NCBI GenBank assembly: GCA_044341745.1
Contig: JBIIRD010000028.1
Coordinates: forward strand, 34 to 64,033
Reading direction: 5' to 3'
Source: Prosthecobacter sp.
GTDB taxonomy: Bacteria; Verrucomicrobiota; Verrucomicrobiia; Verrucomicrobiales; Verrucomicrobiaceae
Length of the DNA: 64,000 nt
The notes beneath the pieces were generated by a model. It was given only the letters and a program-made list of their open reading frames with translations. It was not told where the DNA came from and ran no database searches. The position numbers were made by a program, and so were the translations under genes. The first letter of the stretch is position 1; each line of letters starts with the position of its first letter. Positions 13,109 to 29,086 of the stretch are shown here, piece by piece.

Positions 13109-15808
13109 TTACGGGGCGGCGAGCTGGGCGGTGCCTGCTCCTCCATCCGGTCCCGAACTCAGGAAGAAGCCGTGGGTGTGGGGGGCTTCAGGTGCATGTG
13201 CCTGAAGCAGCACGCCCATGAAGCTGACCTTCTTGGTCTGACCGGTCGGTGTGAAGGTGCCCTTGTAGGTGCCTTTGGCCGTGTCGATGGACAGGGTGTA
13301 GCTGTTATCAGCGGGGGTCACTTTGTCGGTGGCGGAAACCGAGACATTCTTGGTCATGGAGATGGATGGCTTGCCGCCTTCAAAGGAAAGCTCAGCCGCG
13401 CCGGCCCCCAGCCCAAGGGACGAGTTGAAGGTCGTCGTGCCGTCATAGTGCATGCCATCCCCGTCGACCTTGATGCCGTTAGGCCAGCCCGCCGTGTAAA
13501 CGGGGGTGGGCTTGGCCGATGCCGGACGGAACCACAGTAGGTCTTCGCCAGTGATGTCGCCGTGGGCCGTGCCAAATTCCAGAGGGCCGCTGATGGATCC
13601 TCCGCCTGAATACAGGGAGGCGAAGAAGGGCATGAAGTTGCCATGGGAGAGCGGGGCGCTTGCCGTCACGGTGGTGCCGTCGGCCAGGGTGGCGGTGATG
13701 GATGCAATGCCCGTCGGCGAGACGGTCACCGTTCCAACTCCGTCGCCCTGGGGAAATTGGGTGGCGGTGTAGCCGTTGTTCGGGTCTGCCTGACGGGGGA
13801 AGGCCAGGGTGTAATAGCCGCTGGTCGTCTTGTTCAGCAGGGCGGTGGGCTTGAGGTCCTTGCCATTGTAGTAGGCGCGGTCGGCCTCCACGAAGGAGAA
13901 GTTAACGCTGTCCTTTTCACTGAGGATGCCCTGAAGCTTGTTGGCGCCTGCCACGAGCGGGTTCATTTCGACGCCGAGGCTGAGGACGAACGAGGGTTTG
14001 CCCTTCCTGGGAAGAATGAGGGTTTCGGCAAGATCCTTGCCAAACAGCGCCTGGCCGGAGCTGGCAAAGGTGATGTTGGTGATCGAGAATTTCTGACCGT
14101 CGATCTGGATGCTGCCGGAGCCCGTTCCCTTGTCGGTGACGGTGATGTTGATGAAGCCTTCTGAAGCATTGCTGGGAGTGGTGGAGCCGCCTGCGGTGAG
14201 AAGGCCGTTGAAGACGCCTTTGACGCCTGGGAAGGGAGTCGCGCGGAAGTGAGCGACGAGAGTCAGGCCTTCAGAGAAGGTGAAGCTGAGGATGGGTGAG
14301 CGGTCACCGACAAGGATGCCTTGGTTGCTTTCCCAGTAGTCGAGAATGAAGCCTGGTTTGGCGACGGCGCTGAGGGTGTAGGTGCCGCCGATCTGGTAGG
14401 CGTTGCCGGCTTTCAGGCCGCTGATGCTTCCCTTGGCGGTGTCACCCGGCGCGACGGTGGCGGCAAGCGAACGCATTTTGACGGAGGTGAAGAGACGGGT
14501 GGCGGTGGCGGAGACATTGCCGTTCACGTCGATGGCCCTGGCATGAAGGGTGTTGAGGCCGCTGACAGGGGTGACGACGGTGTTCCAAGAGCTGGAGGAG
14601 ACGGCGAGGTTCTGATAGGCGCCGCCGTTGAGCGAGAATTCGACATGGTCGATGTCGCTGTCATCCTGGGCAAAGCCCGTGACACTGACGCTGGTGGCGG
14701 ATTCGCCGAAGGAGGCGTTGATGCCAGGGGAGATGAAGGCGATTTCGGGCAGGTTGGTTTCAACCGTTGGAAGAACGTCGATGGAGACGGTGGTGGTGGC
14801 GGGGGTGCCGACAACGGCTCCGCCTGTGGTTGCACCGAGGGAGAGTGTGAAGGTCCTCGTGGTGAGGGCGCCGGCCTGGGGAATCAGAGTGATGGCGACC
14901 ACCTTGCTGGTTTCACTCGCCGAGAAATTCACCGTTCCCGCAGGGGCCGTGAAATCCGTGCCGGCGGCTGCGGTGCCGTCCGTGGAGTTCAAGGCCACCG
15001 TCACCGAACCAGGACCGCCTGACTTGCGGGTGACCACGACGTTGATGGAGGTGGCGCCCTGAAGGGCATGGAACTCCGAAGCGGCAAAGGCCAGGCCGAC
15101 AGAGTCGGTGGAGGACACAGCGACGGTGCCGGTAAGGCCGTAGGAGACTGCCGCCGAGGCGGTGGTCTGACTGGCGTAGTCGACGCCACCGACGAAGATG
15201 GAATAGTCGCCGGGCTGCAGGAAAAAGGTTCCTGTGACCGTGCCATCCGCGACGCCATCACCCAGGATGCCGGGGGCATCTCCGAAGAGGGCGGAGGTGC
15301 CGTCCACGGCATGGCCGACATAGAGGAAGTCGGACAGGTCGGCAAAGGAGGTGCCGGCATCGTTGCCAACCTTCCAGTTGTCGAGCGAACGGTAGCAGCC
15401 CTCCTTGGCCACACCGGTGCGGGTGGCGGTGTAGGAGGCGCTGATGGCGGAGTAGTCGTAATCGGCTCCTCCGCTCAGGTGAGCCAGGCCGCGGAAGAGG
15501 CTGAAGCCTGGCTTGAGTGTGCCGTCCTTGGCGCCGCCGTTGGTGGAGCCTGAGAAGGTGATGGTGACGAAGGAGGCGGTGGCGACATTGAAGCGGTAGT
15601 AGCGCAGCTTGTGGCTGTCACCGTAGTCGGCGTCAGTGCCATCCGCCCAGCCATGGCTGCCGGTGACGGCCTGGTTGGAGATGGTGACGGGTGTGGTGGA
15701 GACGGCGGGGTCAAGGACGCCGAAGTCGCGTCCGGTGTAGCCGATGTGCCCGAAGGCGTGGATGCCGCCCAGCAGGGAGAGGGCGAGGCAGGGGAGTAAA
15801 CGTTTCAT
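13109..15808 (-). CDS. Giant secreted protein 3: N-terminal domain related to the giant-2 repeat, Calx-beta, Ig-like domains, shared C-terminal module
   Basis: 899 aa with a signal peptide (MKRLLPCLALSLLGGIHAFG). Calx-beta-like segment at about aa 238-345 (SVTVALNSTDGTAAAGTDFTAPAGTVNFSASETSKVV). The C-terminal ~375 aa are homologous to the C-termini of the 17215-21159 and 21190-25533 products. Confidence 0.85.
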   Translation of the reverse strand: MKRLLPCLALSLLGGIHAFGHIGYTGRDFGVLDPAVSTTPVTISNQAVTGSHGWADGTDADYGDSHKLRYYRFNVATASFVTITFSGSTNGGAKDGTLKPGFSLFRGLAHLSGGADYDYSAISASYTATRTGVAKEGCYRSLDNWKVGNDAGTSFADLSDFLYVGHAVDGTSALFGDAPGILGDGVADGTVTGTFFLQPGDYSIFVGGVDYASQTTASAAVSYGLTGTVAVSSTDSVGLAFAASEFHALQGATSINVVVTRKSGGPGSVTVALNSTDGTAAAGTDFTAPAGTVNFSASETSKVVAITLIPQAGALTTRTFTLSLGATTGGAVVGTPATTTVSIDVLPTVETNLPEIAFISPGINASFGESATSVSVTGFAQDDSDIDHVEFSLNGGAYQNLAVSSSSWNTVVTPVSGLNTLHARAIDVNGNVSATATRLFTSVKMRSLAATVAPGDTAKGSISGLKAGNAYQIGGTYTLSAVAKPGFILDYWESNQGILVGDRSPILSFTFSEGLTLVAHFRATPFPGVKGVFNGLLTAGGSTTPSNASEGFINITVTDKGTGSGSIQIDGQKFSITNITFASSGQALFGKDLAETLILPRKGKPSFVLSLGVEMNPLVAGANKLQGILSEKDSVNFSFVEADRAYYNGKDLKPTALLNKTTSGYYTLAFPRQADPNNGYTATQFPQGDGVGTVTVSPTGIASITATLADGTTVTASAPLSHGNFMPFFASLYSGGGSISGPLEFGTAHGDITGEDLLWFRPASAKPTPVYTAGWPNGIKVDGDGMHYDGTTTFNSSLGLGAGAAELSFEGGKPSISMTKNVSVSATDKVTPADNSYTLSIDTAKGTYKGTFTPTGQTKKVSFMGVLLQAHAPEAPHTHGFFLSSGPDGGAGTAQLAAP
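13112..14236 (-). other. Shared C-terminal module (copy in giant 3)
   Basis: Begins GVFNGLL...INITVTDKGTGSGSIQIDGQKF and ends TAKGTYKGTFTPTGQTKKVSFMGVLL...HGFFL. It is collinear with the modules at 17218-18318 and 21193-22401. Confidence 0.7.
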
Positions 15809-15920
15809 GAAATAGTTTCGTTAAGTGGATGAAGATCTGAAGGCAGGTGCAGCTCCGGCTTGAGCCAGGGACGTGCAGAATGATGGCGCGTCGTGGCGCC
15901 GGAGATTTGAGCGGAGAGGG

Positions 15921-16328
15921 TCAGGCCCGGCCTCGTGGAGGCCCTTCCGGGGGCGGGTGGTTTCCTGCCTCCGCCTTTTGAATCAAATTTGGATAGGTCA
16001 TGCGGCGTGCCGCCGGAGGCACGATCCGCAGGGTGTCGGCGACCACGGCCTCAAACTTCTTGAGGGAAGGCTTCGCTCCCTCGGCATCCTTGCCGCGGGT
16101 CTTGCGGCCGCCTTCCTCGACGGCTTCGCAGAGAGGACAGGGGTGCTGGCCGTCGAAGGTCTTGGTCACGGCCTGGAAGAGGCCGTCCGACTGTGAGTAG
16201 CTCACGAGCATGGAGGTCCAGGCGATGCCCTGGATCACAGCCCACTGGAGGCCCAGGGACAGGCACATCATCCCGAGGATGATCCAGCGGATCACCTTTC
16301 CCGGGAGGCTGTGGCTGCTTGTCTGCAT
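15921..16328 (-). CDS. Small membrane protein with HPCPLC motif (paralog 2)
   Basis: 135 aa. TM helix LGLQWAVIQGIAWTSMLVSYS, then TFDGQHPCPLCEAV (motif at nt 16128-16145). Clear paralog of the 28658-29086 product. Confidence 0.8.
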   Translation of the reverse strand: MQTSSHSLPGKVIRWIILGMMCLSLGLQWAVIQGIAWTSMLVSYSQSDGLFQAVTKTFDGQHPCPLCEAVEEGGRKTRGKDAEGAKPSLKKFEAVVADTLRIVPPAARRMTYPNLIQKAEAGNHPPPEGPPRGRA

Positions 16329-16338
16329 GACGGATGTT

Positions 16339-17172
16339 TCAGAAGCGCCACAGCACGCTGGTGTGCAGGGTGAAGTCAGGTGCGGAGGGTGTCAGGCCGC
16401 CGCCAACGCCGAGGCGCAGTGAGAAGCCTCCGGGCAGGCCCAGCATGGTGGTCAGAAGGGCCTGATGAGAGCCTTGTTTCTCCTCGAAGTCGCCGAGAGC
16501 CTCCAGGCCGACGGACAGGTCGTGGTTGATCTCATGGCGAAGGCCCAAGGCATAACCAAAACCTGGTTTTCCGCCGTCGCCGGAGACAAAGCTGACCAGG
16601 TTGAGCACCATGCGGGTGCCCTCCATCAGGTCGGCTTCAAGGATGACGCGGGAATGCCAGCCGTTTTCGCCGTGACGATGAATGCCGCCATGGCTGCCGT
16701 GATCGGTCCCGGAATGGCCGTGGGAGTGAGGGGTGGGCGGAGGGGCGTCTGGACCGCTGCCGGTGTCGTGGACGTGGGCGGCGCTGTCCTGGTGCGAATG
16801 CCCGGAGGACTGGGCGAACTCGTAGCCCGTCCACAGGCCGGCTCTGAAGTTCAGCGGTCCGGTCGGCGGCAGAAGGGAGACGACGAACTGAGGTGTGATG
16901 CCGGTGTTGTCCCAGCCGCTCCCATCATCAGCAAATCCCGCCGTCAGGCCGAAGGCCAGGGACGAGGCCAGGCCGAGGTAGAACCCGGGTTCGCTGGAGA
17001 ACTCGCTGCTGTCTCCATCCCTTGTCCATTCGAATCCCGCAATGCCCACGCCACCCATTGAGGATGGGATGGCGCTGTCCTGAACCAGGATAAAATCGCG
17101 TCCATGGTGGCCATGGGCAGGGTGGATGACCCAGACAAGAAGCATGAATACAAAAGGCAGTGGACGCGGCAT
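16339..17172 (-). CDS. Putative outer-membrane beta-barrel protein with His-rich loop
   Basis: 277 aa with a signal peptide. Alternating-hydrophobicity segments and a C-terminal aromatic end (...HTSVLWRF) typical of OMP beta-signals. A central ~53-aa segment carries 12 His. The mature N-terminus is HGHHGRDF. Confidence 0.65.
   Translation of the reverse strand: MPRPLPFVFMLLVWVIHPAHGHHGRDFILVQDSAIPSSMGGVGIAGFEWTRDGDSSEFSSEPGFYLGLASSLAFGLTAGFADDGSGWDNTGITPQFVVSLLPPTGPLNFRAGLWTGYEFAQSSGHSHQDSAAHVHDTGSGPDAPPPTPHSHGHSGTDHGSHGGIHRHGENGWHSRVILEADLMEGTRMVLNLVSFVSGDGGKPGFGYALGLRHEINHDLSVGLEALGDFEEKQGSHQALLTTMLGLPGGFSLRLGVGGGLTPSAPDFTLHTSVLWRF
16651..16809 (-). other. His-rich segment of the putative barrel protein
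   Basis: SSGHSHQDSAAHVHDTGSGPDAPPPTPHSHGHSGTDHGSHGGIHRHGENGWHS: 12 His counted in 53 residues. Confidence 0.9.
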
Positions 17173-17214
17173 GTCGGGCCGGAGGAAGGGGCTCGGTGAA
17201 TGCTGGAAAGGGTG

Positions 17215-20200
17215 TTAGCGCGTGGAGGACATGGTCATGGAAACATTTCCCGAAACCTGGGCCTCTTCTGCTCCGACGGCTGGAAACTCGTTCATGAGGA
17301 AGTAGCCGAGCCCCACAAGGCCCTCGCCATCATTCACAATCACGGCCTGATAGGAGGCTTTGCGGGTCACGCCGGACTTCTTCACCTGGAAGGAACCTTG
17401 GAACAGGCCTGAAGTGGAGGTCAGGGCGAAGGTGACGGAGCAGGGATTGGCCGGAAAACGTGCCGCGCCGGATGCCGAAAGCGAGCCATTCACGTCCGGG
17501 GACGCCTGCACTCCGTCCAGCGCCTCATGATCCAAGGCGAGGTGAAGGCTGGACGCCGGGGGGGCAACGTATTTCCCGCCGATGACCTCGAGGTCCACGG
17601 GGCCGAAGCCGTTTGGATAAAGCTTGGTGGCTGTGGGGGTGCGGTACCAGGAAGCCTGGGATCCCTCCAGGCGGTGCTCAGGGCCGCCGTCCATGACGAG
17701 GCGCGCCAGGAAGGATCCTGAAAGCGAGGTGACCGCCCGCAGGACGGATGCCTTGCTGTTCCAGACCATGCCTGTCCTGGAGCGCAGCACCTGCTGCAGA
17801 CTGATGCCCCCGTCGTTTTCCACGGGCCGGGAGAAGGTGAGCGAGGTGTCGTCGGCAAGCTTCACCGTGCCGGTGGCGAGGCCGTTGGCCGCAACCTGAA
17901 AGCTGCCGAGGCCATGGCCTGAAGGTGCATCGGCTTCAACATCGCGCAGGCGGAGGGCGAAGGTGTGCCTTCCCTGGTAGGGGCCTGGAGCGGTGCTGGG
18001 CAGCCTGAGTTCCAGGGACACGGCTTCCTGGTCATCATCAAGCTCGCCCGTCATGCGGCCGGATGAGATGTTGTAGTTCAGCGTCAGGCTCAGGGGCTGT
18101 CGGCCGGGCCTTGTCAGGATCACGGTGCCAGAGGGCCTGCCGTCCAGTCCGGTCAGGATGCCGGAGAAGGTGCGCCGGCTGTCACCGAGCTGCATTGTGC
18201 CGGTCAGCGCCCCCAGTTTGGACACCGTGACGGAAAGGCTGCCGCCGAGCAATTCATTCAGCGAAATGGAACGCGGGATGTTGCCGGTGAAGGTTCCGAC
18301 CAGCCCTGTGGGAAGCGCGTTGATCACCAGTGTGGTGCGGAAAGGCTCGGAGCGCCCTGCTGCGTTGGCGACTCGGATGACGAGGGGGAAGCTGCCGCTT
18401 TTCAGTGGGCGGCCGGAGATCACACCGGTGGAGGTTTTGACGGAAAGCCCGGGCGGCAGGCCGGTGACATTGACAAGGGCAGGGGCGTTGTCGACGACTA
18501 GCGTGTGGTTGTAAGGCTGGCCGATCAAACCCACAGGCAACGGCCCTGTGTCGGAGATGGAAGGGGTGTCGAGCACCAGGACCTGGGCGGAAAGGCTGTC
18601 CACACGGCCGGCGGCGTTGCGGACCCGGACGTGATAGAGGCCGGAATCGCGAGGGGAAGCCCCTGCCACTTCAAGCACGGGCACCACGGCGTCATTGAGT
18701 TGAACGCCGTCCTTGAACCATTGGTATTCGAGTTCGGGCCCGCTGGCCGCCACGCGCAGCTTGAAGGTCTTTCCATTCACCAGGGTGATGTCTGTCGGCT
18801 GGGAGGTGATTCTGGGTGCGGCGAGCACGGGAGCCCTCGTGGTGTAGCTGTAGCGGAAGCCCTGCCGGTTCGGGTTCGTGGCCGGTGCGTTGCTGCCCAG
18901 GGCGAGGGTGTAGTTGCCGGGCGGCAGGGTCCAGGCACGGCTGATGCGTGAGCGGGTGCTGTTGTCGACATGATCCATGTAGGTCAGGTCCTCGGCCCAG
19001 TCGATGTTGCCACGGTTGTTGTAGGTGTGGAAGTCGCCGCCGTCGTTGTCCCAGCCCCTCCAGAGGGTCATGCTGGGAAACATGCTGCTGGTGTCGGCCT
19101 TCCGGTCCGGATTGTCCACGCTCGGCCAGGGCACGCTGGCATCGCGCTCCACGGTGAATTCAAATGTCAGCGTCTGGGTGACGGTCAGGGCGATCCAGTT
19201 GGAGGTGTGGGTCCAGCCGACGGGCTGGCTGCCCTGGCCGGGATTGCCGAACAGGGCGTTGTCCTCCCAGCTCCAGGCGCCCACATGATCGCTGTACTTG
19301 CCACTGCTGCTGTCCGGCCCAAGCACAAAGGTCATGTTGTAGCCAATGCCCCCTGTCGATGGGGCACCTTCAGGATAGGTGTTGGCGACAGGATCCCCTC
19401 CCGAGGCGCCCGGGTTTCCTGTCATCACGGAATAAGACATTTTGAAGCCCTGGCGGTTTGGGTTGATTGCCGGCGCATTGCTGCCCAGAACCAGGGAATA
19501 CTGACCGGCCGGCAGCCTCCAGGTGCGGGAGATGGTGGTGTCGGTGCTGTTGTCGATGTGATCGACGTAGCTCAGGTCTTCGGCCCAGGAGACGTGGCCG
19601 CGGTTGTTGTAGGTGTGGGAGTCGCTGCCGTCATTGTCCCAGCCCTTCCAGAGGGTCATGCTGGGGAACATGCTGCTGGTGTCGGCCTTGCGGTCCAGAT
19701 TGTCCATGCTCGGCCAGGGCACCTGAGCGTCCCTTTCCAGGGTGATGGTCAGGAGCGAGGCTTCCTCCAGGTTGACGGCAGTCCAGCAGGAGGTGTGGGT
19801 CCATCCGACAGGCTGGGCGCCCTGGCCGGGATTGCCAAAGAGGGCGTTGTCCTCCCAGCTCCAGGCGCCGACATGGTCGGAGAGGCTGCCGGAGTCACCG
19901 TTGCCAAGCAGGAGGGTGTGGGCATAACCGACACCCCCGGTGGAGGGGGCGTCCTCCGGGTAGGTGTTGGGCACAGGGTCGGACTTGGAAACTGTTGCCG
20001 AACTGTAGGTCAGCTTGAAGCCCTGGCGGTCCAGGTTCGTGGCCGGTGCATTGCTGCCCAGGGCCAGCGTGTAGTCCCCGGCGGGCAGGAAGTAGGTGCG
20101 GGTGATGCTGGTGGCGGTGCTGTTGTCGTAGTGGTCGCGGTAGGTGAGCTTTTCGGCCCAGCTGACATTGCCCCGGTTATTGTAGCTGTGGGAGTCGCCA

Positions 20201-21159
20201 CCGTCATTGTCCCAGCCGTTCCAGAGGGTGAAGCTGGGGAACATGCTGCTGGTGTCTGCGAGCCGGTCAGGAAGTTCAGGCGAGGGCCAGGGGACGGAAG
20301 CATCACGTTCCATGGTCAGGGTGAAGATTGTGGCGCGGGAGACGCGCAGCGCCATCCAGCAGGAGGTGTGGGTCCAGCCGACGGGCTGCGTGCCCTGGCC
20401 GGGGTTGCCAAACAGGGCGTTGTCCTCCCAGCTCCAGGCTCCGACATGGTTGGAGAAGCTGCCTGAGGACGTGCCGTCGGTGATGACGGTTCGGGTGTAG
20501 CCAATGCCACCGGCCTGGGGGTCGAAGGCGGCGGTCATCGAGGATGTCAGGGTGCATTTGAAGCCCTGGCGGTTGAGATTGGTGGCCGGAGCGTTGCTGC
20601 CCAGGACCAGCGTGTAGAGGCCGGCCGGCAGCAGATAGCTGCGGGTGATGCTGGTGGCGGTGCTGTTGTCGTAGTGGTCGCGGTAGGTGAGCTTCTCGGC
20701 CCAGCTGACATTGCCCCGGTTGTTGTAAGTGTGCAGGACGTCGCCATCCCTGTCCCAGCCGTTCCAGAGAGTGAAACTGGGGAACATGCTGCTGATGTCC
20801 GCCTTCCTGTCCGGATCGGAGACATCAGGCCAGGGTACGTTGGCGTCCCGTTCCAGCTTGACGACGAGGACCGTCGGCTGGGTGAGTGACAGGCCCACCC
20901 AGCGTGAGGTGTGGGTCCAGCCGACCGGCTGGGTGCCCTGTCCGGGGTTGCCGAACAAAGAGTTGTCCTCCCAGCTCCAGGCCCCTGCATGATCGGAGAA
21001 TTCCGCCAGATCGTTGCCGGTCATCGAGACCATGCGGGAGTAGGGAACTCCGACTTCGGAGGGTTCGGGACTGCTGATGTCGGCAGAGCGGAGAGTTCCG
21101 GCAATGCAAAGCGCTCCGCACAAGGCGTGCCGGAGCAGGTGGGGCATGGGGATGTTCAT
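17215..21159 (-). CDS. Giant secreted protein 2: four tandem ~190-aa repeats, Ig-like domains, shared C-terminal module
   Basis: 1314 aa with a signal peptide. Four repeats each contain H(A/V)GAWSWEDNxLFGNPGQGxQPVGWTHTSxW ... SSMFPSxTLWxGWDxDG ... YNNRGN ... LGSNAPAxNxNRQGF. Then an I-set-like Ig domain (YQWFKDG...GLYHVRVRNAAG), a He_PIG/cadherin-like Ig domain, and the C-terminal module. Confidence 0.9.
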   Translation of the reverse strand: MNIPMPHLLRHALCGALCIAGTLRSADISSPEPSEVGVPYSRMVSMTGNDLAEFSDHAGAWSWEDNSLFGNPGQGTQPVGWTHTSRWVGLSLTQPTVLVVKLERDANVPWPDVSDPDRKADISSMFPSFTLWNGWDRDGDVLHTYNNRGNVSWAEKLTYRDHYDNSTATSITRSYLLPAGLYTLVLGSNAPATNLNRQGFKCTLTSSMTAAFDPQAGGIGYTRTVITDGTSSGSFSNHVGAWSWEDNALFGNPGQGTQPVGWTHTSCWMALRVSRATIFTLTMERDASVPWPSPELPDRLADTSSMFPSFTLWNGWDNDGGDSHSYNNRGNVSWAEKLTYRDHYDNSTATSITRTYFLPAGDYTLALGSNAPATNLDRQGFKLTYSSATVSKSDPVPNTYPEDAPSTGGVGYAHTLLLGNGDSGSLSDHVGAWSWEDNALFGNPGQGAQPVGWTHTSCWTAVNLEEASLLTITLERDAQVPWPSMDNLDRKADTSSMFPSMTLWKGWDNDGSDSHTYNNRGHVSWAEDLSYVDHIDNSTDTTISRTWRLPAGQYSLVLGSNAPAINPNRQGFKMSYSVMTGNPGASGGDPVANTYPEGAPSTGGIGYNMTFVLGPDSSSGKYSDHVGAWSWEDNALFGNPGQGSQPVGWTHTSNWIALTVTQTLTFEFTVERDASVPWPSVDNPDRKADTSSMFPSMTLWRGWDNDGGDFHTYNNRGNIDWAEDLTYMDHVDNSTRSRISRAWTLPPGNYTLALGSNAPATNPNRQGFRYSYTTRAPVLAAPRITSQPTDITLVNGKTFKLRVAASGPELEYQWFKDGVQLNDAVVPVLEVAGASPRDSGLYHVRVRNAAGRVDSLSAQVLVLDTPSISDTGPLPVGLIGQPYNHTLVVDNAPALVNVTGLPPGLSVKTSTGVISGRPLKSGSFPLVIRVANAAGRSEPFRTTLVINALPTGLVGTFTGNIPRSISLNELLGGSLSVTVSKLGALTGTMQLGDSRRTFSGILTGLDGRPSGTVILTRPGRQPLSLTLNYNISSGRMTGELDDDQEAVSLELRLPSTAPGPYQGRHTFALRLRDVEADAPSGHGLGSFQVAANGLATGTVKLADDTSLTFSRPVENDGGISLQQVLRSRTGMVWNSKASVLRAVTSLSGSFLARLVMDGGPEHRLEGSQASWYRTPTATKLYPNGFGPVDLEVIGGKYVAPPASSLHLALDHEALDGVQASPDVNGSLSASGAARFPANPCSVTFALTSTSGLFQGSFQVKKSGVTRKASYQAVIVNDGEGLVGLGYFLMNEFPAVGAEEAQVSGNVSMTMSSTR
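17218..18318 (-). other. Shared C-terminal module (copy in giant 2)
   Basis: Begins LVGTFTGNIPRSISLNELLGGSLSVTVSKLGALTGTMQLG and ends SGLFQGSFQVKKSGVTRKASYQAVIV...GLGYFLMNEFP. Confidence 0.7.
18835..21054 (-). repeat. Intragenic tandem repeat array (4 units of ~545-590 nt)
   Basis: The conserved His of the HxGAWSWEDN motif falls at aa 57, 238, 429 and 625 (periods of 181, 191 and 196 aa). DNA-level similarity is visible as recurring shadow-frame peptides (PTGW.PWPGLPNRALSSQLQAPT) in four off-frame ORFs. Confidence 0.9.
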
Positions 21160-21189
21160 TTCGTGGAGGGGGAGAGGTTTGAAAAGCGG

Positions 21190-24100
21190 TCAGGGATTCG
21201 TGTCGGACAGCTCGACACGGCCGGAAAGGATGCGGGTGGTCGTCGGAGTTGTTTTGGGGGAGGCGGCAGGCATCTCTGCGAGGTTGAAGAAACCATAGCC
21301 AGCGGGGCCGCCGCCATCGTCGACAATCATGCCCAGGAAGGTGGCGCTGCGCGGGAGGTCCTTGGCCGGAGATACGCTTGTGTCGGAGTCCACCAGCTTG
21401 AAGCTGCCCTGAAAGGCCCCGGTGACGCCGGGTGTGAACGTGGTGCCGCTGCCGGGGGTGAGGGTGAGCTTCACCTGGCCCGGGTTGCTATCCGGCGGGT
21501 CCAGTTTCGCGGGGCTTCCCTTGAGGATTTCAAAGGGGTTCCAGTCCAGGCGTGTTGCGGGTGAGGGGGCCCTGCCTTCCCGGAAGGTCAGGCGTGCGTT
21601 GCCCGCACCGGCGAGAAGACCCATGGCAATGTCGTCCTTGCCGGGAATCTCATAAGCACCGCCCAGGGTCACGAGACTGAGCGGAGCCGGGTTGAGCGGG
21701 TCAAGGCTCAGAGGATCAAAGCCGTCCTTGTAGCTGCGAGTGGTGGCAGTTTGCCGGGGCTTGTACCAGCTCATGGCGGAGGTGTTGAGGCAGCCCGCTC
21801 CACCACCGATGATCTCCAGGGTGCCAAGCAGGGAGCCCGTTTTTGAATAAAGCAGGGTGAAAACGGGGAGGCGACCGCCCTGGCCAAGCGTGCCTGAAAG
21901 AGTGACAGGTGCGGAATTGTCGGCCAGACGCACCACGCCGCTGACGGCGCCCTTGCTGCTGACCTTGAAGGCTCCAAAGCTGTGACCCTGGGGTTTGTTG
22001 TCATCGCCGAGGTCCCCGGCACCGAGTTTCATGGCGAAGGTGTAGCCGTTCACATAGGGGGCGGGGGCGGAGGCGGGAAGCCGCGCATCCAGGAGCAGGG
22101 TGACACCGTCGGACTTGATCTCGCCGGTGAGACGCCTGGATGAGCGCAGAAGGGTGAAGGTGATGTCGATGTCAGGAAGATCCTTGCGGATGATGGTTGC
22201 CTCACCCGCGGGGTCCGCATCAGGCAGGACGGCGAGCTCGCCCTTGAAGCTGTGCTTGACGGTGCCGAGGCTGAGGGTTCCGGAGAAGGTGCCGAGTTTG
22301 GTTGTGGTCACCGTCAGCAGTCCTCCAAGATTGCGGTTGAGCGCGGCTGAGGCGTGACGTGGCACGATGCCCTGGAACACACCGAGGGAATCCGCAGGGA
22401 AGGGGTCAACCCTGACCTCCTTGACCTTGTCGTAACCGGTGCCCGCAGCGTTGGCGGCCTTGATGCGGACGAAGTAGGTTTTCGCGGTGGTGGGCCTGCC
22501 GGTGATGGCGCCGGTGGCGGGGTTGAGCTTCAGTCCTGCGGGCAGGTCCGTTGCAAAATATTTGGTTGGGCCGTTGCTGGCGCTGACCTGGGCGGTGTAG
22601 TTCTGCCCGACGATCGCGTCAGGCAGGAGGAGGTCATCCATGACGGGCCAGGGAAGGATGGTCACGGTGGCGTCCTGGCTGGTCGATCCGCCGGCGTCAT
22701 TGTAGACACGCACGGAGTAGCTGCCGGCCTGGGCGGTGTCGAGGGTGGTGAGCACCAGGGTGCTCTTGGTGGCGCCACTGATTTCGGAGGTGCCCTTGCG
22801 CCACTGATATTTCAGGCCGGTGCCGCTGGCGGTGACGGCCAGGGTGACCTTGGTGCCCTGCTTGACGGTGACGGAGGCGGGATGCTTCTTGATTTCAGGG
22901 ACAGGCAGGACGTTGACCGTGGCGATGCTGCTGGTGACGCTGCCCGCGCCGTTGGTGATGACGACCTTGTAGCCGCCGCCGTCGGAGGTGGAGGCCGGGG
23001 CTAGGTCGAGCACGGGGGAGTCACCGCCGACGTTCGTGGTGCCGCGCTTCCACTGGTAGGAGAGTCCCATGCCGTCCGCGATGACCTTGAGCTGAACCGC
23101 CGCTCCGGGAACCACCGTGGTGCCGACAGGCTGTCTGCGGATGATGGCCTTGCCGTTGACCAGGCCGGGGTTGGGATCGTCCTTGTCGAGGAAGCCGTCT
23201 TCGTCCTCGTCGCCGCCAAAGCGGCTGCCTGCGCCGGGAAGCACACCCATGAAGCTGAGCCAGTCACCGGAGGCGAGGGAGCTGAGGAGTGCGGAACGGG
23301 ACAGCGGCGCGTCGGAGGCCCTGTCGGAACGATAGGCGCCTGATTTCCAGAGGTAGGAGCGGGGCTCGCCGCCGATGAAGCCGCGGGCGACGAGGTCGCA
23401 GTCGTAAAAACCGATGGCGTCCGGGATGGTGCGGGATTCGAGCAGGGCGAGCTCGGAGGTGACCGATGGCTGGGATCGGTTGGCGGTGGTGACGGTGGGG
23501 CCATAGCCGACCGTGGGTGCGGTGCCGGTGTCGAAGCAGTTGAGGAAGGCCGTTACGTCCGCGAACTCCTGCGGCGTCTCCAGCAGGTCGAGAACATAGG
23601 GATGGACGATGGGCATGACATAGCCTGTGCCGTCATGAAGAAGGCCGAAACCGCTGAGCGACTCGGCGCCGGCGCGACCATCATAAAACTGACGCTGATA
23701 GAGGGTGCGGAGCGGCGGGTTCTTGACCGGCTGGCTCAGGCCCGCCTCCTGCGGCAGGTCGATGTTGTGGTTGCTGCCGTCGGGGTGGATGTGGCAGGTG
23801 ATGCAGTGGCTCTTGACGTGGCTGTTGAACAGGTCGCGTCCCTCCTCGGGAATGCCGGAGCCAAGCGTGGCGGGCAGGCTGCGGTCAAGGTTGCGGTTGG
23901 GGTTGGCGTGATGAACGACGGACATCAGGTAGTCCGCCATGTTGTCGATGTCGTCCTTGGACAGCTCGGAGCCGCCCATGAGGTTGTGGAAGGTGCCGTT
24001 GAAGCTTTGCAGCGTCGGCTTGTCCCCCCGCCAGTGGAAGGGGGCTCCCGCCTGCATGCCGCGCAGGGTCTGCGTGGTCATCGGCCCCTTCATCGGGTGC

Positions 24101-25533
24101 ATGTCATAAGGCCGTGGTGTCGTGTCATGGACGGAAAGGTTGGCGCCAAAGACGGTGACCATGCTGCCGCCAGGGTCACCGAGGTCCCAGGCGAGGCCGT
24201 CACGGTCGGCGTCGAGGTGGCACATGCCGCAGGAGTTGGTGCCGTTGCCGGAGAGACGTGCGTCAAAAAGCTGTCCGCGCCCCTTGCGGATGAGAGCCGG
24301 GACCGGGTCGCTGGCGCCGAGGGCGACCTCGGCCTCCAGCGCGAAGCTCGTGGTGTTGATGACGGAGACCGAGCTGGAGATCTTGTTGAGCGTGTAGAGC
24401 CTGCCCCGCACCTCGTCGAGCACCAGGCCGCGTGGGCCGCGCATGGCGGAGGCGCTGGTGTCCGCGCCGGTGCGGATGTCGATGCGCTGAAGCACGCCGC
24501 CGGTGGCCGGATCGATCTTGGCGATGCGGTCGGAGGCGAAGGCGGCGGTCCAGGCGCTGGAGCCGTCGGCGGAGAACACGAGGCTGGCCGGCTGGGCGAG
24601 AGCGACAGAGCGTGCGGGCTCGTTGGGAAGGGTGTTGTAGTCGATGCCGGGGTTGAGGTCGTGAACCGTCACGTCGGAGGGGGTGACGACGGAAAGGCGG
24701 CTGTCGACGAAGTGGCCGCGCAGGGTGGGTTCGAAGCGGACAAGGTTGAGCGAGTCGGTGTTGGCGACCCAGAGCTCGTCCGTGCCAGGGCGGCAGGCGA
24801 GGTCAAAGAGGTTGGTGCCGACGTCACTGATGTAGCGGACCACGGCGCGGGTGGTGGTGTCGATCTCCGCCACGTCCTGGTCGAGGATGATGTTAGGCAC
24901 ATCGGGGTGGCTGGCGGCGACGATCTGGGCGGTGTCGGGGGCTTCGGGCAGGGCGGGATTGGCTGGCGCCGGCTGTGGTGGCGCCTTCTGGCGGGGCAGG
25001 ACGGTGGTGCGGTTTCCGGAGAGGAGGAAGGCGGCGTAGACGCGGGTGCCGTCGGGGCTCAGGGAGAGCGCGTGGGGATAGACGCCGTTGAGGGGGATGG
25101 TGGCGACGGCGGCGCGGGAGGCGGCGTCGTAGACACGGATTTGGTTGGCGCGTGCGCAGGCAATCCAGGCCTGGCCGCCGACAAAAAGCACGTCGGTGGG
25201 CTCGTCGCCTGTGCGCAGGGTCTCGATGACGGCGCTGGTGGAAAGGCTGAGGATGGAGACGGTGTCAGCGGCCTCGTTGACAACCCAGACCTCGTCATTG
25301 GTGCGGGCGCGGACGGTGACGGGTTCGAGACCGACCGGGATCTGGGCCACCCGGGACGGGGTGGCGCCGCTGAGGTCGAAGACCGTCACCCTGGCGCTGG
25401 GCGAGTCGGCGGCGATGAGGCGGGAGCCGTCGGGCGTCATTGCGAGAGGGTGTACCTGGCGCGCCTCGAAGTGCCGCCAGGCGGCTCCGGCATGGCCGGC
25501 CAGGAGCAGGGGGATGAGCAGGAGTGTTCTCAT
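21190..25533 (-). CDS. Giant secreted protein 1: YncE/YVTN-type beta-propeller, di-haem cytochrome c peroxidase/MauG-like domain, two I-set Ig domains, shared C-terminal module
   Basis: 1447 aa with a signal peptide. Propeller-like repeats (LAMTPDGSRLIAADSPSARVTVFDL, LSLSPDGTRVYAA...). Two CxxCH motifs: CGMCH (nt 24217-24231) and CITCH (nt 23791-23805). A CCP-like PFHWRGDKPTLQSF block. Ig repeats (LSYQWKRG..., LKYQWRKG...GSYSVRVYNDAG). Confidence 0.85.
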   Translation of the reverse strand: MRTLLLIPLLLAGHAGAAWRHFEARQVHPLAMTPDGSRLIAADSPSARVTVFDLSGATPSRVAQIPVGLEPVTVRARTNDEVWVVNEAADTVSILSLSTSAVIETLRTGDEPTDVLFVGGQAWIACARANQIRVYDAASRAAVATIPLNGVYPHALSLSPDGTRVYAAFLLSGNRTTVLPRQKAPPQPAPANPALPEAPDTAQIVAASHPDVPNIILDQDVAEIDTTTRAVVRYISDVGTNLFDLACRPGTDELWVANTDSLNLVRFEPTLRGHFVDSRLSVVTPSDVTVHDLNPGIDYNTLPNEPARSVALAQPASLVFSADGSSAWTAAFASDRIAKIDPATGGVLQRIDIRTGADTSASAMRGPRGLVLDEVRGRLYTLNKISSSVSVINTTSFALEAEVALGASDPVPALIRKGRGQLFDARLSGNGTNSCGMCHLDADRDGLAWDLGDPGGSMVTVFGANLSVHDTTPRPYDMHPMKGPMTTQTLRGMQAGAPFHWRGDKPTLQSFNGTFHNLMGGSELSKDDIDNMADYLMSVVHHANPNRNLDRSLPATLGSGIPEEGRDLFNSHVKSHCITCHIHPDGSNHNIDLPQEAGLSQPVKNPPLRTLYQRQFYDGRAGAESLSGFGLLHDGTGYVMPIVHPYVLDLLETPQEFADVTAFLNCFDTGTAPTVGYGPTVTTANRSQPSVTSELALLESRTIPDAIGFYDCDLVARGFIGGEPRSYLWKSGAYRSDRASDAPLSRSALLSSLASGDWLSFMGVLPGAGSRFGGDEDEDGFLDKDDPNPGLVNGKAIIRRQPVGTTVVPGAAVQLKVIADGMGLSYQWKRGTTNVGGDSPVLDLAPASTSDGGGYKVVITNGAGSVTSSIATVNVLPVPEIKKHPASVTVKQGTKVTLAVTASGTGLKYQWRKGTSEISGATKSTLVLTTLDTAQAGSYSVRVYNDAGGSTSQDATVTILPWPVMDDLLLPDAIVGQNYTAQVSASNGPTKYFATDLPAGLKLNPATGAITGRPTTAKTYFVRIKAANAAGTGYDKVKEVRVDPFPADSLGVFQGIVPRHASAALNRNLGGLLTVTTTKLGTFSGTLSLGTVKHSFKGELAVLPDADPAGEATIIRKDLPDIDITFTLLRSSRRLTGEIKSDGVTLLLDARLPASAPAPYVNGYTFAMKLGAGDLGDDNKPQGHSFGAFKVSSKGAVSGVVRLADNSAPVTLSGTLGQGGRLPVFTLLYSKTGSLLGTLEIIGGGAGCLNTSAMSWYKPRQTATTRSYKDGFDPLSLDPLNPAPLSLVTLGGAYEIPGKDDIAMGLLAGAGNARLTFREGRAPSPATRLDWNPFEILKGSPAKLDPPDSNPGQVKLTLTPGSGTTFTPGVTGAFQGSFKLVDSDTSVSPAKDLPRSATFLGMIVDDGGGPAGYGFFNLAEMPAASPKTTPTTTRILSGRVELSDTNP
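21193..22401 (-). other. Shared C-terminal module (copy in giant 1)
   Basis: Begins LGVFQGIVPRHASAALNRNLGGLLTVTTTKLGTFSGTLSLG and ends GVTGAFQGSFKLVDS...PRSATFLGMIV...GYGFFNLAEMP. Confidence 0.7.
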
Positions 25534-25539
25534 GACGGA

Positions 25540-25845
25540 TCAGCCTTTGACCGGGTCTAACGAACGAATGTTGTATATCTTCGCCTGGGCGCCCAGGGCC
25601 TTCACGGCCTCCTCACGGGTGATCGGGCGGGAGGAGATGATCTGGAGCCTGGGCAGGCCGCCCTTTTGCGGAGAGAGAATGCGGGCCGACTGCACGCCCT
25701 TCACGGTCATCATCGCGGCCTTCACATGGCTGGAGCAGGCGCTGCAGAAGATGCCGGCCACCTCGCCCTCGTAGGTCAGCGCGGGCTCGGCGGCCGGGGC
25801 CAGCCCAACCAACAGTGTAGAAACAAGAAGGAGCAGGGTTTTCAT
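25540..25845 (-). CDS. Exported heavy-metal-associated (HMA)-like small protein
   Basis: 101 aa with a signal peptide. YEGEVAGIFCSACSSHVKAAMMTVKGV resembles the GMxCxxC ferredoxin-like HMA fold. It ends 6 nt before the start of giant 1. Confidence 0.6.
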   Translation of the reverse strand: MKTLLLLVSTLLVGLAPAAEPALTYEGEVAGIFCSACSSHVKAAMMTVKGVQSARILSPQKGGLPRLQIISSRPITREEAVKALGAQAKIYNIRSLDPVKG

Positions 25846-25859
25846 GGCGGGATGGTGGT

Positions 25860-26564
25860 TCAGGAATGGGGACGGCCGAGGAGCTGGTGGACGTGCTCGT
25901 GCAGCCGCTCGCCCATCAGCTTGGCGATTTCAGGCTGGGGATGAAAGACGGAGTAGTAGCCGCGGACACGGCCCCGGCCGTCGATCAGGGCGATGCGCAG
26001 GTCGTGCTCAAACTCGTCGTCGGGGGTGATTCGCTCCTCCACGGGGATGGGTTTGGCGGCGGTCATGCCGACTTCGTCGGTCATGAAGCTCCAGAGCCTG
26101 CCCCGGTCGCCCGTGATAAACCACCAGGGGGAGTTTTCCTTGGCGCCGACGGCGTCGGCATAAGCCCTGAGCAGTGCGACATTGTCGCGCTCAGGCTGGA
26201 TGGCCACGGAGAGCATGTGGAATCCCGGGTGGCCGGCGAACTCCTGGTTCAGTTTTTGAAGCTGGGCGGTGACCGCGGCGCAGCCGTGGGGGCACTGGGT
26301 GTAAAGGTAGGCCGCCACGATGACATTGCCCCGGAGATCCGAGAAGCGGACGGCCCTTCCGTTTCTTTCGATGGCTTCAAGATCGCCCTTGATCGTGGCA
26401 TAGACAGGCAGATCAGCCTTGGGAAGGACAGTCTGAAGCACGCGGTTGTAGGCAAGGCTGAGGCCGATGATGAGGGTGATCGCCCCGCCTGTCAGCAGCC
26501 AGAAGCGCACCGGGCGGAACTCGGCGGTTTCTGGAAGGGATCTGCTGGCGGCGGGTGTGCTCAT
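25860..26564 (-). CDS. SCO1/SenC-family copper chaperone / thiol-disulfide oxidoreductase
   Basis: 234 aa with an N-terminal membrane anchor. Thioredoxin-fold block VIVAAYLYTQCPHGCAAVTAQL with CxxxC, plus the downstream conserved His region (FEHDLRIALIDGRGRVRGYY). Its start overlaps the upstream stop (ATGA at 26561-26564). Confidence 0.8.
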   Translation of the reverse strand: MSTPAASRSLPETAEFRPVRFWLLTGGAITLIIGLSLAYNRVLQTVLPKADLPVYATIKGDLEAIERNGRAVRFSDLRGNVIVAAYLYTQCPHGCAAVTAQLQKLNQEFAGHPGFHMLSVAIQPERDNVALLRAYADAVGAKENSPWWFITGDRGRLWSFMTDEVGMTAAKPIPVEERITPDDEFEHDLRIALIDGRGRVRGYYSVFHPQPEIAKLMGERLHEHVHQLLGRPHS

Positions 26565-27169
26565 GGGACGGGCGGATGCAGGGGCTTGGTGGGGGTGCGC
26601 CTGGAGAGCTCGTCCAGCGTCCAGGGGGTTAAACGACCCGGGTTGGCCTTGCGGATTTGCCGAATGGTCACGTCATTCACCTGGAGCGGCCTTTGTCCCC
26701 AGGTGCGAAGCACAAAGGTGGCTACGTCGGCAATCTCCCGGTCATTGAGCCAGGTTCCAAGCCCGGGCATGATCGGGTGCCTGATGAACGTGCCAGGAAT
26801 GGGTCCCGAGACACCGTGCACCAGAATGGCGGCAAAATCCACCTCCCTGCATCCTTGCAGCCAGGGTGAGCCGACAAGGGGGGTGCCAAGTCCTGGCAGC
26901 CCCAGGCCCGCTGGTTCATGACACATGGAGCAGGCCCTTCGGTAGACCGCGGCTCCCTGCATCATCTGTCGTTCTGAGGTGGTCATCACCGGGAACAGGT
27001 CATGAACAAGGTTCCTGGGTGCAAGGGCGTTCGCTGCGGTCAGGCCTGCCGCCAGCACAAGATGAGCCGCCAGCATGCCCCGGAATTTCACGCCCTGGCC
27101 ACGACAGGCGCGCAGTCCCGTGCGGGACCACGCCGTCTGGCATGGCGGGATGAAGGATGGCGGTGTCAT
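26561..27169 (-). CDS. c-type cytochrome (mono-haem, class I-like), copy C
   Basis: CSMCHEPAGLGLPGLGTPLVGSPW... with a distal ...IMPGLG region. The start is uncertain. The ATG at 27169 forms an ATGA overlap with the upstream stop; alternatives are 27217 or 27076. Confidence 0.75.
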   Translation of the reverse strand: MTPPSFIPPCQTAWSRTGLRACRGQGVKFRGMLAAHLVLAAGLTAANALAPRNLVHDLFPVMTTSERQMMQGAAVYRRACSMCHEPAGLGLPGLGTPLVGSPWLQGCREVDFAAILVHGVSGPIPGTFIRHPIMPGLGTWLNDREIADVATFVLRTWGQRPLQVNDVTIRQIRKANPGRLTPWTLDELSRRTPTKPLHPPVP

Positions 27170-27882
27170 GACTTGGGCCCGGAGAGGGGGACTTGAAGCA
27201 AACTTGGTTCGTCCCACATGGCGGCGCGCTCCTTTTCGGCCGCCCTGACCGCCTTGACCTGCTCGACCGTCACGGCGCCGGCCTTGTTGCCAAAGGCGTT
27301 GCGCGCATAGGTCAGCACCGCGGCGATCTGATGGTCCGGCAGGGCGCCCTGGGGAGGCATCATCGGTGCTGGTGTTGTGAAGGGCGTGCCGTTGACCTTG
27401 ATCGGTCCCTGGAAGCCGTGCAGCACAATGCGGATCAGACGTTCAGGCCCGGGAGCCGTGACCCAGTCCGAGCCCGCCAGGGGCGGAAACATGTTGGGCA
27501 GGCCGAGGCCGGTGGGCTGATGGCACACGGCGCAGATGGTGGTGAAGAGGGTCTTTCCTTCTTCATACCCCGGCAGTGAGGCGCTGTCCGCGACGGCAGG
27601 TGCCGGCGCTGAGGGAGGTGGAGTGCTTCCTGCGGGAACCGGACTGGCTGCGGCCGCCTGTGCTGCTGCAGCGGCGGTAGCAGTGGCGGCAGGACTGGTG
27701 GAGGAAGCCTTGTCAGCCGGTTCAGGCTGTGGTCGTGCGGCTTTGAAACCGCCGATCAGGAAGGCGACGCCCCAGAAGGCTGCGAAGCCTGCCACGACGA
27801 TTCCGAAGGCGCTGAATCCGATGCCGGCGATTCTGGCGCCGGTGCTTTCCGCTGAGTTTGGAGAAGTGGAATGATGGCTCAT
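27166..27882 (-). CDS. Membrane-anchored c-type cytochrome, copy B
   Basis: 238 aa. TM helix (IAGIGFSAFGIVVAGFAAFWGVAFLIGGF), an Ala/Pro-rich linker, then CAVCHQPTGLGLPNMFPPLAGSDW...PMMPPQG...VLTYARNAFGNKAG. Confidence 0.85.
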   Translation of the reverse strand: MSHHSTSPNSAESTGARIAGIGFSAFGIVVAGFAAFWGVAFLIGGFKAARPQPEPADKASSTSPAATATAAAAAQAAAASPVPAGSTPPPSAPAPAVADSASLPGYEEGKTLFTTICAVCHQPTGLGLPNMFPPLAGSDWVTAPGPERLIRIVLHGFQGPIKVNGTPFTTPAPMMPPQGALPDHQIAAVLTYARNAFGNKAGAVTVEQVKAVRAAEKERAAMWDEPSLLQVPLSGPKS

Positions 27883-27888
27883 GTGATC

Positions 27889-28371
27889 TTACTCCACGGG
27901 AATTTTTTCCAATTCGGCCTCGGTCCACATGGCCGTGCGTGCCTTTTCCGCCTCGCGGATCGTCTTGACCTGCTCCGGGGTGACAGCTCCGGCCTTGTTG
28001 CCAAAGCTGTTGCGCACAAAAGTCAGCACCGAGGAGATCTGCTGATCATTCAAGGCGGCGCCCTGGGGTGGCATGAGCGGGGCCGGCGTGGTGAAGGCCT
28101 TGCCGTTGACCTTGATGGGGCCGGTGACGCCATGCAGGACCATGCGGATGAGGCGGTCAGGTTTCGGAGCCGAGGCCCAGTCTGAGGCGGCCAGGGGAGG
28201 GAACATGTTGGGCAGGCCCAGGCCGGTGGGCTGGTGGCAGGCGAAGCAGACCTGCATGTAAACCTGCTGGCCCTGGGTCATGACCTCGGGGGAGATAGGC
28301 TCCTGGGCCGGTGCCAGGCCGGAGGCCGATACTAGGACGATCATTGAAGAGAAAAGAGAAGTGCGAATCAT
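27889..28371 (-). CDS. Periplasmic c-type cytochrome, copy A
   Basis: 160 aa with a signal peptide. CFACHQPTGLGLPNMFPPLAASDW...PLMPPQG...VLTFVRNSFGNKAG. Close paralog of copy B. Confidence 0.88.
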   Translation of the reverse strand: MIRTSLFSSMIVLVSASGLAPAQEPISPEVMTQGQQVYMQVCFACHQPTGLGLPNMFPPLAASDWASAPKPDRLIRMVLHGVTGPIKVNGKAFTTPAPLMPPQGAALNDQQISSVLTFVRNSFGNKAGAVTPEQVKTIREAEKARTAMWTEAELEKIPVE

Positions 28372-28657: not shown

Positions 28658-29086
28658 TCAGGCGAGGTCGAATTCGGGGGGAGGGGTGGCCGGGCGTTGG
28701 GAACGCGTGGCCGCCGGGCTGGAGAACGTGCTCCAGCGATTGGGCTCCGAAGGGGGGAAGACAAAATGGGGCACCTCGACCACGGCGAGGGTAAGTTTCA
28801 TCTCCTTCAGCGTTTTCAGGGGAGTCTGATTCTTCCCGGATTCCTGCTCTGCATCCACGCCCTTTTTCACGGCGCGGCAGAGCGGACAGGGGTGCTCACC
28901 GTCAAAGGTGTCGCTCAAGCCTTCGGAGAGCGAACCTTTTTCGATCGAGTAGCTCACGGCCATGCCAACCCAGGCGGCCGACTGCAGGGCCGCCCAGTGC
29001 AGCCCGACCGACAGACACACGGCCATCACGGTCAGCGCGCGCATCAGGCGGAGCAGACTGGGTGTGACGATGCAGTTGTAGCTCAT
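28658..29086 (-). CDS. Small membrane protein with HPCPLC motif (paralog 1)
   Basis: 142 aa. TM helix VGLHWAALQSAAWVGMAVSYS, then TFDGEHPCPLCRAV (motif at nt 28877-28894). First gene of the co-directional cluster. Confidence 0.8.
   Translation of the reverse strand: MSYNCIVTPSLLRLMRALTVMAVCLSVGLHWAALQSAAWVGMAVSYSIEKGSLSEGLSDTFDGEHPCPLCRAVKKGVDAEQESGKNQTPLKTLKEMKLTLAVVEVPHFVFPPSEPNRWSTFSSPAATRSQRPATPPPEFDLA

Follow-up and report, generated by a model that had tools for sequence, protein, structure and literature searches.

The window analysed here (64,000 nucleotides of Prosthecobacter sp., assembly GCA_044341745.1, contig JBIIRD010000028.1) contains three co-directional genes for giant proteins whose N-termini, judged by sequence, look like signal peptides and which end in the same module of ~380 residues. 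Giant 1 (1447 amino acids, encoded on the minus strand at 21190-25533) consists of a signal peptide, of domains identified with Pfam and NCBIfam (YncE-type propeller, di-haem CCP/MauG-like domain, two immunoglobulin (Ig) domains and He_PIG) and of the module, which covers residues 1041-1447 (21193-22413, minus strand). Giant 2 (1314 amino acids; 17215-21159, minus strand) carries a signal peptide, four CorA/MopE-like copper-binding repeats, an Ig domain and a He_PIG domain identified with Pfam, followed by the module at residues 946-1314 (17218-18324, minus strand). Giant 3 (899 amino acids; 13109-15808, minus strand) has a signal peptide, an N-terminal domain, Calx-beta and Big_7 domains (Pfam) and the module at residues 526-899 (13112-14233, minus strand). 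The limits of the modules were drawn from hidden Markov model (HMM) envelopes and alignments.

The three giants are homologous over their final 370-407 residues. BLASTP aligns giant 2 with giant 1 at E = 3e-63, giant 3 with giant 1 at E = 2e-11 and giant 3 with giant 2 at E = 8e-7. When the modules alone are compared by the Smith-Waterman algorithm with 300 shuffled sequences, the z-scores are 59.7, 18.3 and 15.3 and none of the shuffles reaches the real score. A first-pass annotation, made from the sequence alone, had described collinear C-terminal modules in the three proteins; BLASTP, shuffling and HMM alignment all bear this out, the HMM boundaries lie within ~15 nucleotides of those given in that annotation and the start and end motifs that it quoted are all present in the alignment. 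A tree of 27 paralogous modules from the same genome places the modules of giants 1 and 2 as sisters (support 98/95), within what is called here subfamily I, and that of giant 3 in a second, old and deeply separated subfamily II (support 100/100).

All Pfam and NCBIfam matches on the three giants are confined to their N-terminal and middle parts, and the final 370-407 residues have no match to either library at E <= 0.1. The modules of giants 1 and 2 are directly preceded by Ig and He_PIG domains, at 22432-22899 (minus strand; Ig_3/I-set at residues 879-959, He_PIG at 971-1034) and at 18322-18816 (minus strand; Ig_3 at 782-848, He_PIG at 882-946), respectively. The BLASTP alignment of giants 1 and 2 begins ~170 residues before the module and takes in the I-set Ig and He_PIG domains. 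The N-terminal parts had been described as completely different; this holds for the passengers as defined by Pfam but not for the Ig and He_PIG domains shared by giants 1 and 2. The module itself is not an Ig-type repeat: the Ig and He_PIG matches stop upstream of it, none of the Ig-family Pfam matches of the 27 isolated modules is better than E = 0.5 and the predicted fold is of barrel type.

The fold was predicted with AlphaFold2 for the module of giant 1, using an alignment of the 27 paralogues, and the model was compared with known structures by Foldseek; of the sandwich array and the barrel put forward at first reading, the predictions favour barrels. The model (predicted local distance difference test, pLDDT, 88.6; predicted template modelling score, pTM, 0.88) is all-beta, with ~24 strands arranged in three consecutive units, A, B and C. 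Subdomain A (module residues 8-112; 22078-22392, minus strand) would comprise eight short sequential beta-strands, assigned by DSSP from 11-17 to 104-111; it holds the start motif G.F.G...LGG.L.VT.T..G..SG.L.LG, and the paralogues that are split are broken just after it. Subdomain B (residues 122-253; 21655-22050, minus strand), predicted by AlphaFold2 and Foldseek to be an eight-stranded calycin-like barrel, is the most conserved part, with invariant columns in the motifs PQGxGxG, LADGT, W.RP and Y..GF; when modelled alone, it again gives eight sequential strands (pLDDT 88.0). Subdomain C (residues 254-407; 21193-21654, minus strand) would have at least seven strands, four of them long; it holds the end motif G.FQGSF...R.ATF.G.IV...G.GFF...SG.V.L and is missing from a natural two-barrel variant.

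Against the PDB, the whole module has only weak Foldseek matches, the top one being TbpB (E = 8.9e-4, template modelling score, TM, 0.19), followed by the two-barrel DUF3598 protein 2o62; the best single-domain targets are CRABP2 and nitrobindin. The top 50 matches of isolated subdomain B are nearly all calycins (E 0.02-0.3, TM 0.3-0.53, probability up to 0.97) and include siderocalin, ApoM, lipocalin-15, PGDS, odorant-binding proteins, nitrobindin, streptavidin, the TbpB C-lobe and LbpB. In the PDB, neither single-sequence nor profile searches brought up a sequence relative of the module. At least the middle domain is thus predicted to belong to the calycin-like up-and-down barrels, without any close solved relative. 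As in calycins, the eight strands of subdomain B are predicted to be sequential and antiparallel, and each subdomain of the module starts with a G-x-[FY] strand that recalls the G-x-W strand of calycins. Unlike in calycins, the similarity is weak and three domains stand in tandem at the ends of giant exoproteins; none of the 27 copies matches a Pfam or NCBIfam lipocalin or avidin family, the only trace of a calycin signature being the looser first-strand motif. The topology of the model, with three small barrels and strands of 6-9 residues in A and B, rules out a single large outer-membrane barrel. An internal triplication cannot be regarded as established by sequence: self-comparison and pairwise comparison of the subdomains with hhalign gave only a weak signal between A and C (P = 1.6e-4, probability 50%), the other comparisons being non-significant. 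The conserved residues are mostly turn glycines, prolines and aspartates with a few aromatics and do not form any catalytic signature. The modules contain few charged residues and are near neutral, their median isoelectric point of 6.4 ruling out the basic charge expected of proteins that bind anionic polymers.

The family defined by this module is very large, unnamed and strongly expanded in Verrucomicrobiaceae. A profile built from the three tails detects ~35 open reading frames (ORFs) with the module in the genome to which the window belongs (5.64 Mb, 98.6% complete); together they total ~195 kb, i.e., ~3.5% of the genomic DNA. One further ORF encoding 3205 residues (C139:59508-69122, plus strand) leaves its contig just as a subfamily II module seems to start (...GKVMIGGTTTSVAGAFQGDG...); since this ORF is cut by the contig end in an assembly of 167 contigs, ~35 copies is a lower bound. 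The distribution search proposed in the first-pass annotation was carried out with a profile of the 27 paralogues against 1.84 billion representative proteins and retrieved 11,172 relatives at E <= 1e-3, 4,592 of them at E <= 1e-30. None of the 27 isolated paralogous modules matches Pfam-A or NCBIfam, no Pfam family covers the module in 47 full-length relatives and database proteins made of the module only have no precomputed Pfam domain. The records of the relatives are named 'hypothetical protein', 'immunoglobulin domain-containing protein' or 'beta strand repeat-containing protein', the named sources being Prosthecobacter, Roseimicrobium and other Verrucomicrobia. No paper describing the module was found in the literature.

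The counts for the genus, family and phylum, obtained from samples of genomes with capped scoring, are all lower bounds. The module is found in at least 58 of 121 genomes of the family and in at least 14 of 301 genomes of the phylum, other classes included. The sample of the genus is bimodal: all 15 scored candidates match in 34 of 80 genomes, and none in the other 46. Positive genomes of the genus yield up to 134 candidates each at first look, before scoring. Several of the negative genomes are of 6-8 Mb and 95-99% complete. In the five module-negative genomes searched for it, the passenger of giant 1 is absent, leaving no alternative tail to read.

The module is almost always C-terminal. In its own genome, fewer than 10 residues separate the module from the stop codon in ~30 of the 35 copies; a module ends at most 15 residues from the C-terminus in 144 of 153 proteins (150 database representatives and the three giants); and in 12 genomes belonging to other families and classes of Verrucomicrobiota, all 19 module ORFs found have it at this position. 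Most carriers have signal-peptide-like N-termini. The passengers identified with Pfam in 47 relatives are very diverse, enzymes and adhesins alike, and include CAP, NHL, the proprotein-convertase P domain, cadherin, BACON, Calx-beta and PKD. A He_PIG domain lies ahead of the module in 37 of these relatives, while the modules of subfamily II are preceded by InlB-B-repeat-type domains instead of He_PIG. Some minimal proteins are composed of little more than a signal peptide, He_PIG and the module.

Several variants depart from this layout. Some proteins carry two to four full copies of the module in tandem. Natural copies reduced to A and B (HMM positions 6-244 or 2-250) are found at C-termini, and other copies are split by an insert of ~300 residues between A and B; split or A+B-only copies are encoded in the genome of the window at C98:73921-80853, C131:52449-58325 and C66:27100-37416 and are present in the database representatives P0269, P0290, P0297 and P0300. 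Five I-set Ig domains follow the module in two paralogues of this genome and in several proteins elsewhere. The existence of duplicated, truncated, split or internal copies points to a folded binding or retention domain and not to a cleaved tag that would act like a signal peptide. These copies, in particular the duplicated and internal ones, speak against a secretion signal of the simple terminal kind and favour a binding domain.

The passenger of giant 1 is found with three types of tails. The first homologues (~1430-1460 amino acids) end in Ig, He_PIG and the triple-barrel module; the second (~1100 amino acids) end in Big_9 and the two-barrel version; the third (~860-880 amino acids, e.g., in Chthoniobacteraceae; among P0265-P0306) end in a tail of ~70 residues with the pattern ...W..LE.S..L..W......F[FY]R[LV]RRxW (e.g., FFRLRRTW or FYRLRRTW). 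This small FYR tail resembles the module in being C-terminal and unannotated and in sitting on orthologues of the giant 1 passenger, but it is much shorter (~70 versus ~380 residues) and unrelated in sequence. It also ends ~6-10 large proteins of the genome of the window (e.g., C103:21334-31881 and C75:78688-83829). The presence of three tail types on one passenger indicates that the tails are interchangeable, as expected of localization modules.

PEP-CTERM-like tails were found on ~10 other ORFs of the genome, but the module tails (...SG.V.L... or ...ESGRVTLG.P) have no transmembrane helix and are thus not those of exosortase substrates. A type V autotransporter is likewise rejected, as the autotransporter beta-domain PF03797 is absent from the genome (the control genomes gave matches) and as the model shows three small barrels and not a 12-stranded membrane barrel. 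Given the lack of autotransporter beta-domains and the small number of PEP-CTERM-like tails, the module is the commonest C-terminal domain on the large exoproteins of this genome. The DUF560/Slam outer-membrane protein (PF04575) gave no match in the genome, but it did not give any in the 14 control genomes either.

The reading that we favour, and to which we give about an even chance of being right, is that the module is a non-catalytic, folded and non-cleaved localization module by which a variety of exported proteins are retained at the envelope through a common component. Its operation can be viewed as follows. Proteins made of unrelated heads and Ig/He_PIG stalks, almost always ending in the module, would be exported by the Sec pathway. 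Once exported, they would be kept at the envelope through binding of the module to a shared component, for which an outer-membrane lipid or lipopolysaccharide, a surface polysaccharide and a receptor protein are candidates. Different heads would thereby be displayed at one place; in the window, this would co-localize three products of one gene cluster: the copper-binding protein, the di-haem peroxidase and the Calx-beta protein. Copies in tandem, up to four per protein, look like binding modules that add avidity. The first-pass annotation had proposed a common domain for anchoring, secretion or complex assembly; the C-terminal position, the unrelated passengers and the tail swapping fit an address or anchor, but a search of gene neighbourhoods and of a few candidate families found no partner gene, sorting motif or component of a known secretion system to go with it.

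Several observations weigh against retention by a common component. Clustering of the ORFs located within 8 kb of the 35 copies of the genome revealed no conserved neighbour but only families that are abundant in the Planctomycetes-Verrucomicrobia-Chlamydiae (PVC) group, such as sulfatases and DUF1501 proteins, and 17 loci from 12 distant genomes do not share any neighbour family. The structural matches are weak (for subdomain B, E of 0.02 at best and TM of at most 0.53), so that no ligand can be deduced from them. The minimal proteins made of a signal peptide, He_PIG and the module suggest that the module itself might be the functional part. Lastly, the module is missing altogether from roughly half of the genomes sampled in the genus, so that surface display in this lineage can do without it.

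Alternatively, the module could be an address for outer-membrane translocation, its barrels being recognized by a translocon that guides periplasmic intermediates across the outer membrane, as does the cargo barrel of the type XI secretion system (T11SS, Slam) or the C-terminal domain (CTD) of the type IX secretion system (T9SS). This would explain the strict C-terminal position behind variable effector domains, and a T11SS cargo, TbpB, is the top Foldseek match of the whole module, its C-lobe and LbpB recurring among the matches of barrel B. T11SS cargo proteins (TbpB, LbpB, fHbp, haemophilin) are built from a variable N-terminal effector, a pedestal and, at the C-terminus, an eight-stranded barrel (PMC12282271), a layout paralleled by the module proteins, and the small soluble barrel directs their translocation across the outer membrane (PMC12282271). 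However, the T11SS has been described only in Proteobacteria (PMC12282271), and neither the giants nor the 27 modules match PF01298 (TbpBBD/lipoprotein-C barrel). The module differs from these cargo proteins by its three domains in place of one, its two to four copies per protein, its sometimes internal position ahead of five Ig domains, the lack of a lipobox requirement and its occurrence in Verrucomicrobiota. Moreover, the two-barrel variant dispenses with the terminal domain, no linked gene for an outer-membrane protein was found and no DUF560/SlipAM protein was detected in the genome, even if the silence of the control genomes extends to this last search. Translocation as the role of the module is therefore considered unlikely.

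The module could also be an autonomous binder, similar to lipocalins or lectins, of an environmental molecule such as a hydrophobic compound, a metallophore or a glycan; it would then act like a carbohydrate-binding module (CBM) and not like an anchor. The structural matches are indeed small-molecule-binding calycins (siderocalin, ApoM, nitrobindin, streptavidin), and short proteins consisting almost only of the module exist, as do tandem arrays. Nevertheless, so strict a C-terminal position over hundreds of architectures is unusual for CBM-like modules, the conservation mainly concerns turn glycines, prolines and aspartates and does not draw a pocket signature, and many of the passengers are already adhesins or binding domains, which makes such a role improbable. 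It is very doubtful that the module serves long Ig/He_PIG stalks only as a structural cap or folding nucleus, comparable to an autochaperone and devoid of binding or targeting role, since, even if a He_PIG or InlB-B-repeat stalk domain nearly always precedes it and its conservation does not resemble that of an active site, ~380 residues in three domains, maintained in 11,172 clusters and two old subfamilies, would be a costly cap, and orthologues do with a tail of 70 residues.

Retention at the envelope, the favoured role, and an export address are not mutually exclusive. In a broader proposal, which we regard as quite improbable, the module would be the cargo domain of an undescribed outer-membrane export or display pathway of Verrucomicrobia, the counterpart in function of the T9SS CTD or of the cargo barrel of the T11SS, with a machinery encoded away from the cargo genes, and its presence or absence would split Prosthecobacter into two cell-surface types.

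Common C-terminal address or anchor domains are already known; what sets the module apart is its size, its fold of tandem calycin-like barrels and its phylum, and curated libraries do not contain it. Like the T9SS CTD of Bacteroidota (Por_Secre_tail, TIGR04183/PF18962, and the type B CHU_C), it is a single type of C-terminal domain found on many unrelated secreted proteins, giant adhesins included. The T9SS CTD, which is carried by tens to >100 proteins per genome, is a single Ig-like sandwich of ~80 residues that is cleaved. By contrast, the module has 370-407 residues and three barrel domains and can be duplicated or internal; it does not match the CTD models TIGR04183, PF18962 and TIGR04131, and, to our knowledge, no T9SS has been described in its phylum. 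The closest analogues for the way in which the module may act are the non-covalent envelope anchors, such as triple S-layer homology (SLH) domains, triple CWB2 domains, GW and LysM. They share with it about three subdomains of similar size, a location at one terminus of many surface proteins, repeatability and the lack of catalytic activity. Their folds and sequences are unrelated to those of the module, and they bind wall polymers of monoderms, whereas the host of the module is a diderm.

The gene of giant 2, with its four CorA/MopE-like repeats, lies directly downstream of that of giant 1, with its propeller and MauG/MbnH-like di-haem peroxidase (window positions 17215-25533, together with 25540-28371). 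The cluster that contains this pair also encodes three c-type cytochromes, SCO1 and a small HMA-like protein, and in many Verrucomicrobia orthologues of giants 1 and 2 again share a contig. In methanotrophs, a CorA/MopE-like copper protein and a MauG-like di-haem enzyme are co-transcribed and surface-associated. The giant 1-giant 2 pair resembles the CorA-CorB or MopE-MCA2590 pair of these bacteria, here in a non-methanotroph. Between the genes of giants 2 and 3, a histidine-rich exported protein of 277 amino acids (16339-17172, minus strand) has an end, ...VLWRF, similar to those of outer-membrane proteins. Its gene adjoins one for a small membrane protein that carries the motif HPCPLCEAV (15921-16328, minus strand) and has a paralogue encoded at 28658-29086; this pair of paralogues surfaced in the clustering of neighbouring ORFs.

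The module bears on the question of how giant adhesins and enzymes reach the surface of Verrucomicrobia and their PVC relatives. It defines at least 11,000 protein clusters that have neither a Pfam or NCBIfam name nor a solved relative; with a name for it, thousands of proteins now annotated as 'hypothetical' or 'Ig domain-containing' would form a defined class of probable surface proteins. In the window, its presence on giants 1 and 2 suggests joint display of a copper-binding protein and the di-haem enzyme presumed to be its partner. More generally, the module provides a handle for finding the mechanism by which these proteins are anchored or exported.

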